The position numbers and the translations under genes were made by a program. This document shows, piece after piece, positions 1-63,397 of a DNA stretch of 63,507 nucleotides. The notes under the pieces were generated by a model. That model made no database searches. It saw only the letters and a list, made by a program, of their open reading frames with translations, and was not told where the DNA came from. The first letter of the stretch is position 1; each line of letters starts with the position of its first letter. The stretch is from Candidatus Omnitrophota bacterium (lineage in GTDB: Bacteria; Omnitrophota; Gorgyraeia; JAHIPI01): the NCBI GenBank assembly GCA_043800065.1, contig JAZDNG010000039.1:1-63507 (forward strand), given 5' to 3'.

Positions 1-399
<399 letters not shown>

Positions 400-1142
400 A
401 AGTAAAATGACCGTTTGCTGTCTTTAAAATTGGCCATATGCTGGAAAATCCGAGGATTACTCACTACTTGACAACCGAAATGAATAGAGATATAATATCT
501 CTATCATGTCAAGTGACAATGTGCAGTATGCGGACAATCAGCAGGTAAGCGGGAATAATAGAATCTCCGATGAATACTTTGCCGGCTTTGTTGATGGTGA
601 AGGATGTTTCTACGTGGGATTCAGTAAGCGAATAGATTTGCCTCTAAAGTGGCAAGTTATTACTGAATTTCACCTGAGTCAAAATCCAGGTGGTAAAAAT
701 ATTCTCGAAGGGTTTCAAGAGAGGTTAGGTTGTGGATATATAAAACCAAACCATCCTAAGAATCCAAGAGATAAATCGTGGGTTTTGATTGTGAAAGACA
801 GAAAAGATTTGTGCGAGAAACTCGTGCCTTTCCTTAAGAAGCATCCAGTTCATTCTGCTAAAGCAGGCGACTTTCGCATTTTTAGTCAAGTGCTCGAGAT
901 TATAAATAAAGGAGAGCATTTGAAGCGCGAAGGTTTCAACAAAGTGGTAGAATTGGTATTTAAATCATCCAAAGCAAAGTTTAAGCGATATTCAAAAGAG
1001 ATTCTTATAAATTCCTGAAACCTCAGAGACTATACGCCAATCATCTGAAAAAGATGAAGATATAGTCCGAGCTGCGTAGCGATACGCAGAGATTGGCAGA
1101 AATGTCCAATCCTCCCGCCAGTAGCGGGAAGTAACAAAGCTG
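400..1142 (+). mobile_element. Group I intron interrupting 23S rRNA (helix 93 region)
   Basis: Joining 399 to 1143 restores the conserved GAACGTCG-GNRA-GACAGT|TCGGTCTCTATCTGCC string. P1 is GACAGT (394-399) paired with GCTGTC (417-422), giving a U:G pair at the 5' splice site. The terminal intron nucleotide is G (1142). Core R-like TCAGAGACTATA (1023-1034) and S-like AAGATATAGTCC (1057-1068) are present. It carries a homing-endonuclease ORF. Confidence 0.85.
506..1018 (+). CDS. LAGLIDADG homing endonuclease, single-motif (I-CreI-like homodimer class), intron-encoded
   Basis: 170-aa ORF lying wholly inside the intron. It has one LAGLIDADG motif (YFAGFVDGEGCFYV) near the N-terminus. Size is typical of single-motif enzymes. 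The stop codon lies 4 nt before the intron R element. Confidence 0.85.
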   Translation: MSSDNVQYADNQQVSGNNRISDEYFAGFVDGEGCFYVGFSKRIDLPLKWQVITEFHLSQNPGGKNILEGFQERLGCGYIKPNHPKNPRDKSWVLIVKDRKDLCEKLVPFLKKHPVHSAKAGDFRIFSQVLEIINKGEHLKREGFNKVVELVFKSSKAKFKRYSKEILINS

Positions 1143-1440
1143 TCGGTCTCTATCTGCCATGGGCGCAGGAAATCTGCGAGGATACTTCCTCAGTACGAGA
1201 GGACCAGGAAGTACGTGCCACTGGTGCTCCAGTTATCGCGCCAGCGGTAAAAGCTGGGTAGCTATGCACGGAAAGGATAAGCGCTGAAGGCATATAAGCG
1301 CCAAGCCCCCCTCAAGACTAGATTTCCCTCCCCGCAAGGGGACTAAGACACCTTGAAGACTACAAGGTTGATAGGCCAGATGTGTAAGACCCGCGAGGGT
1401 TTGAGCTTACTGGTACTAATCTGTCGAAAGGCTTGACCAC
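1143..1440 (+). rRNA. rrl: 23S rRNA exon 2 (3' end of gene, end approximate)
   Basis: TCGGTCTCTATCTGCCATGGGCG, CAGTACGAGAGGACC (sarcin-ricin loop region) and GGTTGATAGGCC are read directly. The terminal TACTAAT...GGCTTGACC resembles the E. coli 3' end. Confidence 0.9.
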
Positions 1441-1769: not shown

Positions 1770-3830
1770 GTGGCGGAATATGACGCGAAAAATATACGGA
1801 ATATAGCAATACTCGGTCATTCCGGGGCGGGAAAAACATCGGCGGCGGAACACCTTTTAAGCGAAGGAGGCGCCATACCGAAGCCCGGAAGTATTAACGA
1901 AGGCAGTACTGTCAGCGATTATAACAAAGACGAGATAGAGCGGAAGATTTCAATAAATTCATCGGTACTCCACGTTGCCCGCGATGGTGTTAAGGTAAAT
2001 ATTATAGACACGCCCGGATATTCGGACTTTGTGGGCGAGGTCATATCGGCCATTTCGGTAGTAGAGGGGGCGGTTATAGTAGTGAATGCGGTGCACGGCA
2101 TAGAGACGGGGACCAATCAGGCATTTAAATTCATACAGAGTAAAAATATTCCGGCAGTAGTTTTCATAAATAAGATGGATAAAGAGAACGCCGATTTCAA
2201 TAAATGTGTAGAAGCGCTGCAGAATAAATTTGGCAAAAAATGCGTAGTTACCGGTTACCCCATAGGAAAAGAATCGTCCTTTAAGGGCGTGGCTAACCTT
2301 CTGACAAAAGAAGGGGTAGATTCTCTCAGCGGGACAAATAAAGACGACGCAAAGAAGGAAAGCGATATGCTGGTGGAGAGCGTTGCCGAATCTGACGATG
2401 CCCTTTTAGAGAAATACCTGGATAAAGGAGAGCTTTCGGCCGATGAAATCAAGGGCGCCTTCCGAAAAGGTGTAGTACAGGGCAAGGTTATACCTATCAT
2501 TGCCGGCTCAGCGGCAACTCATTTGGGCATAAAGGAGCTTTTAAATGCCGTAATAAATTATCTTCCTTCACCGGCGGATGTTGCGGCTCGTGAGGGCATT
2601 AATCTCAAAGACAATAGTTCCGCAAAGATAGAGATCGAGAAAGACGCGCCTTTCTCGGCATGCGTATTTAAGACGATATCAGATCCGTATGTAGGGCAGA
2701 TAACCATCTTTAAGGTATTTTCCGGATCCATCGCGGCAAATGCGACATTGTACAATGTGACTAAAAGGGCAAGAGAAAAAATAAGCCAGCTTTCCGTAAT
2801 GCAGGGAAAGCAATTAAAAGGTGTTGACGCGCTATCGGCCGGGGATATCGGGTGCGTCATGAAACTTAAAGATACCGGAACTAACGATTCTTTAGGCGAT
2901 GAGAAAAATCCTATACAATTTCCGCCGATAAGTTTTCCGGAACCGGCAATGTCATTTTCCATAAAACCAAAGACGCAGGCGGACGAAGACAAAATATCAA
3001 GCGCCCTACATCGCCTTGTTGCAGAAGATACGACCCTTAAAGCGGTGAGGGATGCCCAGACAAAAGAAGAAATAATATCAGGAATGGGAGACCTCCATTT
3101 AAACATAGTCATAAACCGCCTCAAGGATAGGTTTGGGGTGAGTGTTGATATCGGGACGCCCAAAGTGGCCTATAAAGAGACGATTATAACAAAGGGCGAC
3201 GCACAATACAGGCACAAAAAGCAGTCAGGCGGCGCAGGGCAATTTGCCGAGGTTTGGCTGAGGGTAGAACCGCTCCAACGGGGCGAGGGATTCCAATTTG
3301 TCAGCGAGGTCGTAGGCGGCTCCATTCCGGCGCCGTTTATAGTGAGTTGCGAAAAAGGCGTGAAGACCGCGCTCGATAACGGCAGTTTGGCCGGCTATCC
3401 GGTGGTTGATGTGAAGGTTGTGGTGTACGACGGAAAGACGCATCCTGTCGACTCAAAGGATATTGCGTTTCAGGTGGCTGCCAGGCAGGCATTTCGCGAG
3501 GCCTTTTTGAAAGCAAAGCCGATTCTCTTAGAGCCGATAATGGATGTAGACGTGACAGTGCCGGATGAATATATGGGGAGCATTACAGGGAGCCTCAATT
3601 CAAGACGCGGCAGGATTCTCGGCATGGAGCCGGGCGAGGGCGCGCAGACTATTAAGGCAAAAGTGCCGCTCGAGGAGATGTATAAATACGTAAATGAATT
3701 GAAGTCTATTACTGCAGGCAGAGGAACATATACCATGAAGTTCTCCCATCATGAACAGGTGCCGCCTAATGTAGCCCAGAATATTATCCAGAAGGCACAG
3801 GCGGCAAAGGTGGAGGAGAAGGAAGAGTGA
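1770..3830 (+). CDS. Elongation factor G paralog (EF-G2-like translational GTPase)
   Basis: GTG start with AAAGGAG upstream. G1 GHSGAGKTS, G3 DTPGYSDF, G4 NKMD, and EF-G domains II-V are recognizable. The N-terminus resembles EF-G2 (LVGHAGSGKTT type) rather than the canonical AHIDAGKTT of fusA. Confidence 0.8.
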   Translation: MAEYDAKNIRNIAILGHSGAGKTSAAEHLLSEGGAIPKPGSINEGSTVSDYNKDEIERKISINSSVLHVARDGVKVNIIDTPGYSDFVGEVISAISVVEGAVIVVNAVHGIETGTNQAFKFIQSKNIPAVVFINKMDKENADFNKCVEALQNKFGKKCVVTGYPIGKESSFKGVANLLTKEGVDSLSGTNKDDAKKESDMLVESVAESDDALLEKYLDKGELSADEIKGAFRKGVVQGKVIPIIAGSAATHLGIKELLNAVINYLPSPADVAAREGINLKDNSSAKIEIEKDAPFSACVFKTISDPYVGQITIFKVFSGSIAANATLYNVTKRAREKISQLSVMQGKQLKGVDALSAGDIGCVMKLKDTGTNDSLGDEKNPIQFPPISFPEPAMSFSIKPKTQADEDKISSALHRLVAEDTTLKAVRDAQTKEEIISGMGDLHLNIVINRLKDRFGVSVDIGTPKVAYKETIITKGDAQYRHKKQSGGAGQFAEVWLRVEPLQRGEGFQFVSEVVGGSIPAPFIVSCEKGVKTALDNGSLAGYPVVDVKVVVYDGKTHPVDSKDIAFQVAARQAFREAFLKAKPILLEPIMDVDVTVPDEYMGSITGSLNSRRGRILGMEPGEGAQTIKAKVPLEEMYKYVNELKSITAGRGTYTMKFSHHEQVPPNVAQNIIQKAQAAKVEEKEE

Positions 3831-3859
3831 TTTACAAGGTGCTATTTACGTGGTATAAT
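3831..3859 (+). promoter_or_regulatory. Candidate sigma70 promoter upstream of yebC
   Basis: TTTACA, 17-nt spacer, TATAAT, with TGG immediately 5' of the -10 (extended -10). Confidence 0.45.
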
Positions 3860-3870
3860 TTAATTGTATA

Positions 3871-3932
3871 GCGATTAGCGTCTGGCGTATAGTAAAACTA
3901 AACGCTAAACCCTATACGCTAAACGCTAAAGC
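3871..3932 (+). repeat. Heptamer-repeat hairpin: (GCGNNTA)x3 arm opposite (CTAAACG-like)x5 arm
   Basis: Five tandem heptamers CTAAACG/CTAAACC/CTATACG/CTAAACG/CTAAAGC (3898-3932). They are complementary, with G:U pairs, to GCGATTAGCGTCTGGCGTATAG (3871-3892). Confidence 0.6.
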
Positions 3933-3952
3933 AATTCTATCAGGGGTGCTAA

Positions 3953-4693
3953 ATGTCCGGACATTCGAAGTGGGCTACGATAAAACATAAAAAAGCTGCA
4001 ACAGACTCCAAAAGAGGCAAGCTTTTTACCAAGTTGATAAAGATGCTTACTGTCGCGGCGAAAAACGGAGGCGGTAGTCCCGATACAAACCCTTCTTTAC
4101 GTTTGGCTATAGATAAAGCCAAAGAAGCAAATATGCCGCAGGATAACATAGAAAGGGCGATAAAAAAGGGCACGGGAGAATTGCCCGGCGTTTCATACGA
4201 ATCGGTATCTTACGAAGGCTACGGCCCGGGCGGTGTCGCTTTTTACGTAGATGTGCTTACGGATAATAAAAATAGAGTGACCGCCGAAATAAGGACCATA
4301 TTTTCAAAAATCGGCGGCAACCTGGCCGGCGCGGGCGCAGTAAGCTGGCTTTTCGAGAAAAAAGGGCTTTTTATAGTAAACAAAAAAGACGCGTCCGAAG
4401 ATAAATTGATGTCCATAGTGTTGGATGCGGGCGCAGAAGATATGTCGGATGAGAGCGAGACATATGAGATTAAATGCCAGCCGGTGGATTACGAAAAGAT
4501 AAAAAAGGCGCTTGATACCGCTAAGATCAAAGTGGAATCTTCTGAAGTCACTTTTCTCCCGAAGAATACCGTTAAGGTGTCCGGCGATCAGGCAAAGCAG
4601 GTTCTGAATCTGGTAGAGCAGCTAGAGGATAACGACGATGTGCAGAACGTCTATGCCAACTTCGATATACCGGATGATATCCTGAATGCGTAG
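3953..4693 (+). CDS. yebC: YebC/PmpR family transcriptional regulator
   Basis: MSGHSKWATIKHKKA N-terminus and length are diagnostic. It sits directly upstream of ruvC, as in many bacteria. Confidence 0.9.
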   Translation: MSGHSKWATIKHKKAATDSKRGKLFTKLIKMLTVAAKNGGGSPDTNPSLRLAIDKAKEANMPQDNIERAIKKGTGELPGVSYESVSYEGYGPGGVAFYVDVLTDNKNRVTAEIRTIFSKIGGNLAGAGAVSWLFEKKGLFIVNKKDASEDKLMSIVLDAGAEDMSDESETYEIKCQPVDYEKIKKALDTAKIKVESSEVTFLPKNTVKVSGDQAKQVLNLVEQLEDNDDVQNVYANFDIPDDILNA

Positions 4694-4741
4694 TTCCGGA
4701 TAACCGGATTCAGCCAAAGGCTGATCCGCCTCAGGCGGAAA

Positions 4742-4773: not shown

Positions 4774-5265
4774 ATGAAAATTCTTGGTGTTGACCCGGGA
4801 CTGGGTATTACGGGCTATGGCCTGGTGGATGATACTGCCCGAGGCGCTAAGCTTATAGAAGCGGGCGTCATAAGGACATCCGCCGAAAAAGGCATAATGG
4901 CGCGGCTCCTCAAAATATACGATGGCCTTTCCGAGATAATAGAAGAATACCGGCCCGAAGTTATAGTAATAGAAAAGATCTATTCTCATTATAAACATCC
5001 GCGAACCGCAATTCTAATGAGCCACGCCCGCGGTATCGTATGCCTTCTTGCGGGAAAATATAATCTCGAACTTATTAATTACGCCTCCACTCACGTAAAG
5101 AAAACCATAGCCGGACGGGGGCACGCGAGTAAAAATCAGGTTGCGGGTATGGTAAAGACGCTTCTTTCTTTAAAAGAAGTGCCGAAACCCGAAGACGTTA
5201 CCGATGCCCTGGCATTGGCTATGAGCCATTTGGACTTCATAAAAGTAAAGAGGCGGTATAAATGA
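4774..5265 (+). CDS. ruvC: Holliday junction resolvase RuvC
   Basis: MKILGVDPGLGITGYG N-terminus, about 160 aa, and the ruvC-ruvA-ruvB order. Confidence 0.9.
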   Translation: MKILGVDPGLGITGYGLVDDTARGAKLIEAGVIRTSAEKGIMARLLKIYDGLSEIIEEYRPEVIVIEKIYSHYKHPRTAILMSHARGIVCLLAGKYNLELINYASTHVKKTIAGRGHASKNQVAGMVKTLLSLKEVPKPEDVTDALALAMSHLDFIKVKRRYK

Positions 5266-5918
5266 TATCCCAGATATCCGGAAAACTGAAGCAGAAGAAG
5301 AATAATGCCGTATGGATAGACGTAAACGGCATTTCTTACGAAGTCCTCCTGCCGGGTGTTGTGATGAAGAAGGTAGAGTCCGCCATAGATGAAAACGGCT
5401 GTATAACATTAATCACTTATCATTATTTCCAATCGGACCCATCGCGCTCTATCCCCGTGCTTATAGGTTTCTTGAGCGAAATAGAAAAAGAATTTTTTGA
5501 AAGGTTCATAACTGTTTCGGGCGTCGGCCCTAAAGCGGCCTGTAAGGCCATGGAATTGCCTTTTTCTGCAATAGCGGATGCCATAGACAAGGGCGACATA
5601 GCCATACTTAAAAGCTTGCCGGGCATAGGTGAACAACGGGCGAGGGAAATAATAGCAAAACTGCAGGGCAAAATAGGCAAATATGGCCTCATACAGGATA
5701 AGGCAGCTTCAGGTGAGATATCAATAGAGGAAGATATTAAAAAAGAGGCCCTCGATGTACTTACTCAGCTTCAGTACGCGAAATCGGAAGCAAAAACCAT
5801 GATAGATGACGCGCTTGGCAGAAATCCAAAAGCCTCATCTTGCGAGGAGCTGCTCAATGAAATATATAAGCAAAAGCAGAAGCAGAAAAAAGAGGACATA
5901 AAGTATGCCGAAAGATAA
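5262..5918 (+). CDS. ruvA: Holliday junction branch migration protein RuvA
   Basis: ATGA overlap with ruvC. The HhH region SVSGVGPKAACKAM and LKSLPGIGEQRAREI is recognizable. Confidence 0.88.
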   Translation: MISQISGKLKQKKNNAVWIDVNGISYEVLLPGVVMKKVESAIDENGCITLITYHYFQSDPSRSIPVLIGFLSEIEKEFFERFITVSGVGPKAACKAMELPFSAIADAIDKGDIAILKSLPGIGEQRAREIIAKLQGKIGKYGLIQDKAASGEISIEEDIKKEALDVLTQLQYAKSEAKTMIDDALGRNPKASSCEELLNEIYKQKQKQKKEDIKYAER

Positions 5919-57545: not shown

Positions 57546-57715
57546 ATCTTCGGGGTGAGGTGACCCGCCTTCGCCGTAGTAGAAACTTCATAGATGATAT
57601 GCTTCGGCGGACAGGGAATTCCTCGACCGGTAGTGAAAGCCTACGAGCCTTGCAATAGCGGGGCAGACCCGGCGCGATTCCGGGGCCGATAGTAAAGTCT
57701 AGATGGAAGAAGATT
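57546..57715 (+). promoter_or_regulatory. FMN riboswitch (RFN element)
   Basis: CTTCGGCGGACAGGGAATTCCTCGACCGGTAGTGAAAGCCTACGAGCC ... GGCAGACCCGGCGCGATTCCGGGGCCGATAGTAAAGTCTAGATGGAAGAAG matches the RFN consensus blocks. It sits upstream of ribBA. Confidence 0.85.
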
Positions 57716-57744
57716 AAAAACATGTGATTTTCGACTATTTTGCC

Positions 57745-63303: not shown

Positions 63304-63397
63304 TGGCGGAGAGGCAGGGATTTGAACCCTGGATACAGGTTTGACCCCGTATAGCGGTTTAGCAAACCGCCGCCCTCGACCACTAGGCGACCTCTCC
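63304..63397 (-). tRNA. tRNA-Ser (anticodon GCT), CCA encoded
   Basis: Reverse complement reads GGAGAGG...CCTCTCC-G-CCA acceptor. Anticodon arm GCGGT-TTGCTAA-ACCGC. Long variable arm. T arm CAGGG-TTCAAAT-CCCTG. Confidence 0.9.

Follow-up and report, generated by a model that had tools for sequence, protein, structure and literature searches.

Group I introns with LAGLIDADG open reading frames (ORFs) have been catalogued in the 23S rRNA genes of bacteria of the Candidate Phyla Radiation (CPR), where position 2604 is among the sites at which LAGLIDADG_1 predominates (Tsurumaki et al. 2024, J Bacteriol, PMC11270868). By the order of the lists in that study, position 2604 corresponds to 23IS13, and group I introns at 23IS9-11, 13 and 14 were described as previously unreported in known bacteria; the biochemistry concerned I-ShaI, from a different site (23IS7), and no RNA structure, splice-site pairings or enzyme were given for 2604. 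A catalogue from 2018 of group I introns in archaea gives the large-subunit (LSU) sites 1923, 1931, 2500 and 2593, with 2604 not among them. Here we analysed a contig of 63,507 nucleotides from a Candidatus Omnitrophota bacterium (JAZDNG010000039.1, assembly GCA_043800065.1), the whole of which we call the window, and we hold with high confidence that its 23S rRNA gene is interrupted at position L2604 by a mobile group I intron encoding a homing endonuclease. In site, in its group I-like RNA and in having a LAGLIDADG_1 ORF of one domain the element agrees with the CPR 2604 class, but its host is a member of the Omnitrophota and not of the CPR. The intron is of a catalogued kind, to which the present copy adds a member from a new host phylum. 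A first-pass annotation, made from the sequence without database searches, did not match the position to any catalogued rRNA intron site; it is listed by Tsurumaki et al. 2024, and the genome scan described below places the intron there in 44 species-representative genomes. No paper mentioning rRNA introns of Omnitrophota was found in the literature searched, a search with the site names L2604, bL2604 and L2605 returned only irrelevant papers, and the searchable literature held no description of an L2604 intron outside the CPR. A plasmid collection gave no match to window positions 380-1160.

The Thermotoga element that encodes I-TnaI (PDB 5GKK) is likewise a group I intron of bacterial 23S rRNA whose single-motif LAGLIDADG product is about 170 amino acids (aa) long, and it provides the best structural match, but the two proteins are only 32% identical. 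The Thermotoga intron lies at about L1931, in domain IV and not in helix 93, and its host is a hyperthermophile. No paper for 5GKK turned up in the literature search, and the name I-TnaI is that of the entry title as returned by Foldseek; 23S group I introns of Thermotoga are attributed to Nesbo and Doolittle (2003) as cited in PMC3984707. I-CreI (from the Cr.LSU intron of the Chlamydomonas chloroplast), I-MsoI and I-CvuI are also single-motif LAGLIDADG proteins of group I introns in LSU helix 93, but their site is 2593 and not 2604, and the sequence similarity is distant (E 1e-7 to 1e-5). The highest PDB sequence similarity is to the fungal mitochondrial enzymes I-OnuI, I-LtrI and I-SmaMI. 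Members of the I-OnuI family have the catalytic motif in its glutamate form, as the window protein does, and share with it the helix motif IPFF..K.P....K..DF, but they are two-domain monomers of about 300 aa residing in protein-coding or rns genes, whereas the window protein has a single domain. With its site at 2604|2605 and its kinship nearer to I-OnuI-family domains and I-TnaI, the window element falls outside the I-CreI family; the initial label "I-CreI-class" describes the architecture correctly (one motif, presumed homodimer) but not the kinship.

The insertion site was located by alignment to E. coli K-12 rrlB, which yielded two colinear BLAST pieces, window 1-399 matching 2207-2604 and window 1143-1438 matching 2605-2902, and leaves an insert of 743 nt (window 400-1142) between U2604 and U2605. 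The Rfam LSU_rRNA_bacteria model aligned to window 1-1427 with 616 bits and a single large insert, 385-1142, of 758 nt against 15 model positions. Direct counting on rrlB, anchored on GAACGTCGTGAGACAGTTCGGTCCCTATC at position 2729 of the L057 locus with the rrlB start at 142, identified the T of GACAGT as residue 2604. The exons are as follows:

1-399, + strand: 23S 5' exon, E. coli 2207-2604 (Rfam LSU alignment, rrlB BLAST, rrlB count)
1143-1438, + strand: 23S 3' exon, E. coli 2605-2902 (Rfam LSU alignment, rrlB BLAST)

The junction falls inside the 3' strand of helix 93, which adjoins the peptidyl-transferase centre, and in the Rfam consensus structure the two flanking U's pair with A2590 and A2589; we take them to be the neighbouring pseudouridines Psi2604 and Psi2605 of E. 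coli. Read from the sequence alone, the first-pass annotation had proposed colinear exons joined at this junction, a location in helix 93, a GCAA loop in place of GUGA and a distance of about 11 nt to the I-CreI site L2593, and each of these was borne out by the alignments, the consensus structure or the count. The predicted ligated exon junction is GCAAGACAGU|UCGGUCUCUAUC. Because the intron interrupts the 23S, the rRNA gene of the window looks broken, and at the Rfam gathering threshold its 23S match stops at position 437. For any 23S phylogeny or annotation of the source genome, positions 400-1142 must be spliced out.

The insert has the organisation of a group I intron, and none of its core pairings is broken in the window. 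Its parts are:

400-1142, + strand: group I intron, 743 nt, without P2, last base G1142 (Rfam partial match, covariation, 76 bits of an ORF-less homologue)
392-424, + strand: P1, exon 392-399 with internal guide 417-424, U399.G417 at the 5' splice site (read from the sequence)
409-413, + strand: P10 5' strand GACCG, 3 nt upstream of the guide, pairing with CGGUC of the 3' exon (1144-1148)
429-434, + strand: P3 5' strand AUUGGC, pairing with GCCAAU (1036-1041) and crossing P7 in a pseudoknot
439-543, + strand: P4-P5 domain, with P4 439-443/539-543 and P5 449-452/531-534
459-464/521-527, 466-473/507-514 and 484-504, + strand: P5a, P5b and a distal hairpin, within the P4-P5 domain
536-545, + strand: Q element AAUCAGCAGG, within the P4-P5 domain
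544-556 (5' strands), + strand: P6 544-545/1021-1022 and P6a 551-556/1011-1016, the P6a loop being the ORF body
1023-1068, + strand: 3' half of the catalytic core, with P3' 1036-1041, P8 1042-1056 and J8/7 1057-1060
1023-1034, + strand: R element TCAGAGACTATA (Rfam alignment)
1057-1068, + strand: S element AAGATATAGTCC (Rfam alignment)
1026-1034/1061-1068, + strand: P7, with bulged A1027 and the pair G1028-C1067
1072-1089, + strand: P9, peripheral 3' hairpin with a conserved GCGA tetraloop
1091-1111, + strand: P9.1, peripheral 3' hairpin with the conserved loop CAGAAAUG
1113-1129, + strand: P9.2, peripheral 3' hairpin
1142, + strand: terminal guanosine (omega-G) at the 3' splice site, G in 45/45 complete introns, window included

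The P1 helix of GACAGU (394-399) with GCUGUC (417-422) and U399.G417, the R-like and S-like elements and the terminal G had been recognised in the initial reading and were all found in place. The L2604 intron has no P2, nor is there space for P7.1/P7.2 between P3' and P8, and from these missing elements it looks IB-like.

This structure is supported by covariation among 29 homologous introns, which were aligned with MAFFT after removal of the ORF body and on which the hand-built structure was counted. Paired cells made up 84.2%, compared with 36-41% when the 3' partners were slid by 1-3 columns, and 52 of the 82 pairs changed on both sides. On four of five measures no shuffle out of 500 came up to the observed value, and on the fifth one of 500 did. 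Judged by compensatory pairs, the strongest helices were P3 (5/6), P5a (6/6), P8 (5/5) and P9 (6/7), with others in P5 (3/4), P5b (6/8) and P7 (3/8); cells were paired at 98.9% in P3, 97.8% in P7 and 99.5% in P9. P4 and P6 are invariant, as are seven pairs of P1 (GACAGU/GCUGUC and one further pair), while the outermost, 392-424, forms in 7 of the 29. Within P7, G1026, the bulged A1027 and G1028-C1067 are invariant in 29/29, and it is here that the guanosine-binding site is predicted. All six columns of P6a change on both sides, but 59.8% of its cells are paired, a weak support with MAFFT misregister as the likely cause; P9.1 and P9.2 covary and are partly misaligned. At the splice site, the wobble is U.G in 41 loci and C.A in all three loci with an exon C (L011, L014 and L020), in which 23S residue 2604 is C and the guide base opposite is A, not G. 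P10 likewise has compensatory variants, GUCCG/CGGAC in L005 and GGCC/GGCC in L013.

Further support for the core comes from a sister genome (GCA_022013075.1, locus L058) that carries an ORF-less intron at the same site. This allele matches the Rfam Intron_gpI model with 76.0 bits (E 3e-19), and the P3-P9 of the model agree with the hand-built structure. Its unconstrained thermodynamic fold recovers P1, P4-P9 and P9.1/9.2 (z = -6.7), the P6a arm being a short hairpin.

The intron encodes a protein that belongs to the LAGLIDADG_1 family:

506-1018, + strand: 170-aa single-motif LAGLIDADG_1 ORF (Pfam PF00961, PDB matches, AF2/Foldseek, dN/dS)

As had been proposed, a LAGLIDADG_1 profile recognises the protein (PF00961, residues 26-129, 62.2 bits against a cut-off of 23.1, E 9.2e-17) and the stop codon precedes the R element by 4 nt; no NCBIfam model covers the protein. 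The motif FAGFVDGEG occupies residues 25-33 with the acidic residue E32, and G31, E32 and G33 are invariant among 26 homologues. Sequence matches in the PDB were either domain of I-OnuI, I-LtrI, I-SmaMI and relatives (E 1e-31 to 1e-21), the 170-aa single-domain 5GKK (E 2.5e-24, the best full-length single-domain match), I-Vdi141I (E 2e-9) and I-CreI and I-CvuI derivatives (E 2.5e-7 and 1.1e-5). The AF2 model, with a predicted local distance difference test (pLDDT) score of 87.3, has an alpha-beta-beta-alpha-beta-beta-alpha core (H22-32, E33-41, E49-59, H61-74, E78-81, E92-96, H99-112). Its top Foldseek match was 5GKK, with a target-normalised template-modelling score of 0.85, and Foldseek gave probability 1.00 to I-TnaI, I-LtrI, I-SmaMI, I-OnuI and I-Vdi141I. 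From its single motif, the protein is presumably a homodimer. Together with this motif, the partial symmetry of the target about the insertion point and the empty, identical site in L059 are indirect indications of the predicted dimerisation and cleavage of the intron-less allele. The ratio of nonsynonymous to synonymous substitution rates (dN/dS) was 0.08-0.18 against relatives 86-90% identical, and the ORF is therefore under purifying selection. The sequence AGACAGT|TCGGTCT around the junction is identical or differs by one base in 44/44 loci, and in an intron-less 23S gene the predicted target is GAACGTCGCAAGACAGTTCGGTCTCTATC. The protein is a candidate for a new meganuclease specificity.

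The ORF is interlaced with the ribozyme. It starts in the 3' strand of P5b, its codons 1-17 run through the P5, P4 and P6 strands, and its stop lies in the 3' strand of P6a; residues 1-17 are predicted to be disordered. At window 533-544 the invariant residues D10-N11-Q12-Q13 (GAC AAU CAG CAG) coincide with J5/4 and the 3' strand of P4 (GACAAUCAGCAG), so that this stretch is dual-coding. Because these codons form the J5/4-P4 strand of the ribozyme, the conservation of D10-Q13 reflects a constraint on the RNA, and the same RNA motifs are kept in the L058 allele, which has no ORF at all; the RNA appears to set the constraint on codons 10-13.

Taken as a mobile group I intron, the element would be transcribed within the pre-rRNA, and the guide GCUGUC would pair with the exon GACAGU to form P1 with its U.G wobble. 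Exogenous guanosine bound in P7 would attack after U399, P10 (GACCG/CGGUC) would align the 3' exon, and the freed 3'-OH of U399 would attack after G1142, with exon ligation restoring helix 93. The single-motif LAGLIDADG protein, a presumed homodimer, would cut intron-less 23S rDNA at the partly symmetric AGACAGT|TCGGTCT, and the intron would be copied in when the break is repaired with an intron-carrying gene as template (homing). A role of the protein in aiding splicing, which is reported for its relative I-TnaI, is also possible.

The state of the L2604 site varies among Omnitrophota. The ORF-containing form was found in the window and in loci L049-L055 and P0001-P0003, at 86-90% identity. 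In the sister genome with the ORF-less allele, the 23S exons match the window at 100% of the 342 + 288 nt aligned, and the protein genes are about 94% identical in nucleotide sequence. Its intron at the L2604 junction (L058 positions 5045-5345) is 301 nt long, and its first 52 nt and last 122 nt are 98% and 96.7% identical, respectively, to those of the window intron. In a more distant relative, L059, the L2604 site is empty (GAACGTCGCAAGACAGTTCGGTCTCTATCTGCC), with 24 + 12 flanking nt equal to the window exons. The 23S insertions of these genomes, in E. coli numbering, are:

L058: 1931, 2263 and 2604
L050: about 1932, 2263, about 2479 and 2604
L060: between 2474 and 2501, and 2593; none at 2604
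L059: none
Window (which begins at 23S position 2207 and covers the 23S only from there): 2604 present; none at 2263

Since L058 has an insertion at 2263, where the window is uninterrupted, near-identical rRNA genes differ in intron content. The two further insertions of L058 occupy its positions 2708-3468 (761 nt, at 1931|1932) and 3801-4702 (902 nt, at 2263). In L049 and L050 (2847-6513; endonuclease 86% identical) the 23S gene contains four LAGLIDADG ORFs, namely a LAGLIDADG_1 ORF of 172 aa, two LAGLIDADG_2 ORFs of 218 aa each and the L2604 one. The insertions of L060 lie at its positions 488-911 and 1005-1704, with 700 nt inserted at the I-CreI site 2593|2594. An insert at L2593 was absent from all 44 complete L2604 loci. 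Occupation of either L2593 or L2604 might protect against the other, the 22-bp target windows of which would overlap.

Several observations weigh against reading the insert as a functional mobile intron. The Intron_gpI match of the window copy, from the search that the first-pass annotation had suggested, reaches 43.5 bits (E 2.3e-9), below the gathering score of 50 that the ORF-less sister allele exceeds, and covers 951-1089, the 3' half only. The score is sub-threshold because the core is split by the ORF, and at the gathering threshold neither the window nor locus L002 gave an Intron_gpI match, the model missing ORF-containing copies. In the automatic alignment P6a, P9.1, P9.2 and P10 are 30-72% paired, for which misalignment of variable regions is the likely cause. 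The ATG of the ORF has no obvious Shine-Dalgarno sequence and is buried in the P5b stem, and because translation must cross the P4 and P6 core strands, expression and folding of the intron conflict. The target is symmetric at only five of its seven inner position pairs (hand count), with a chance probability of about 0.013, and the ligation of the exons in RNA is a step that we infer. We nevertheless conclude that the element is real, well formed and almost certainly functional, and we infer splicing, cleavage and homing.

A possible but unlikely alternative is that the insert, while a true group I intron, is not autonomously self-splicing and needs its own LAGLIDADG protein as a maturase and/or host factors, the ORF being kept mainly for that role. 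The purifying selection on the ORF would be consistent with such a dependence, as would the lack of P2 and a translation that must unfold P4-P6. Among solved structures the protein is nearest to I-TnaI, and maturase-like activity is reported for a related protein from a 23S intron of Thermotoga (PMC3984707). However, L058 retains its 301-nt ORF-less version at the same essential site between identical exons, so that the core can be removed without a protein encoded in cis, unless one is supplied from elsewhere. Furthermore, neither E32 nor the fold is disrupted, which is what an active nuclease should show.

It is very improbable that the intron is decaying or splicing-dead, that it sits in a non-functional rRNA copy, or that it is an assembly chimera. 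The window starts within the 23S gene, which leaves the copy number and the integrity of the remaining operon out of view, but the exons are identical to those of the sister genome and score 616 bits against the LSU model, and the operon runs on normally into the 5S rRNA gene, a hairpin resembling a terminator and genes in conserved synteny. No core pairing is lost, the ORF is unbroken and evolves under purifying selection, and copies 86-90% identical occur in the same context in independent assemblies. The intervening-sequence sites that RNase III is known to cleave in bacterial 23S rRNA are helices 25 and 45, not helix 93. That the insert is such a sequence, excised by an RNase III-type activity without ligation to leave a fragmented 23S rRNA, is the least credible reading: such elements do exist in bacteria, and the authors of the CPR study allow that they may account for some insertions of uncharacterised type, but the known RNase III-cleaved positions match 23IS2 and 23IS4, while the sites with group I introns are 23IS6-14, nearer the 3' end (PMC11270868), the insert termini are unpaired with each other in minimum-free-energy or centroid folds, with no long RNase III terminal stem, and P1, P10, the terminal G and a covarying catalytic core are present.

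The mobile intron extends well beyond the Omnitrophota. A scan of species-representative genomes with the ORF identified 48 loci, 44 of them complete with both flanks, and in 44/44 the same intron and endonuclease are inserted at ...GACAG(U/C)|...G|UCGG.... The record labels include CPR lineages, Omnitrophota, Planctomycetes, Actinomycetota, Armatimonadetes, Nitrospirae, Methylomirabilota and others, although some labels of metagenome-assembled genomes (MAGs) are probably unreliable. Homologues at the L2604 junction were found in the CPR loci L002-L008, L010, L020, L024 and others, and the ORFs at L2604 in CPR genomes (Levyibacteriota, Roizmanbacteria, WWE3, Berkelbacteria and others) are 37-67% identical to that of the window. 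A 65% identical endonuclease (P0086) is labelled Candidatus Hadarchaeaceae archaeon and comes from a contig of 1.9 kb; either this lineage does occur in an archaeon, or a fragment of bacterial rRNA was binned wrongly.

The host of the window is a Candidatus Omnitrophota bacterium, as judged from EF-G and synteny. The EF-G is 96% identical to a Candidatus Omnitrophica MAG protein, with nearly all named top matches from Omnitrophota, and the gene order 23S-5S-EF-G-YebC-RuvCAB-QueH-SpoIID-QueA-Tgt is common to the window and Omnitrophota contigs. Look-ups of the exact sequences of the window's endonuclease and RuvB returned no record, and the source genome is thus absent from the index searched. 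A Firmicute host, considered on account of a SpoIID domain and a one-strand gene bias, was dropped on the EF-G search and this synteny; between 1770 and 62027, 31 of the 34 ORFs of at least 250 aa lie on the + strand. The 5S rRNA gene (1512-1628) is followed by a G+C-rich hairpin (1636-1668, GCCCCGCUGC...GCAGCGGGGC) and seven T's, which looks like the terminator of the rRNA operon, and several weak Rfam small RNA matches at 1636-1668 are probably just that hairpin. Further along the window are an FMN riboswitch (57596-57718, + strand; 83 bits, which exceeds its gathering score) and a tRNA gene (63307-63397, - strand).

Nothing in these results is conceptually new, but a site described only for CPR bacteria is now extended to the Omnitrophota, and together with the related loci the results show that several uncultured phyla besides the CPR commonly carry introns in their rRNA genes. 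There is, in our view, an even chance that the L2604 intron and its endonuclease represent one horizontally mobile lineage that moves between uncultured bacteria very far apart (CPR, Omnitrophota, Planctomycetota, Actinomycetota, Armatimonadota and others) and is still actively cycling in the Omnitrophota, with an enzyme of uncharacterised specificity for AGACAGT|TCGGTCT. The Omnitrophota combine ORF-containing, ORF-less and empty alleles with varied intron sets (L1931, L2263, about L2479, L2593 and L2604), and this allele trio provides a compact natural example, in free-living bacteria, of the cycle of gain, degeneration and loss of a homing endonuclease.

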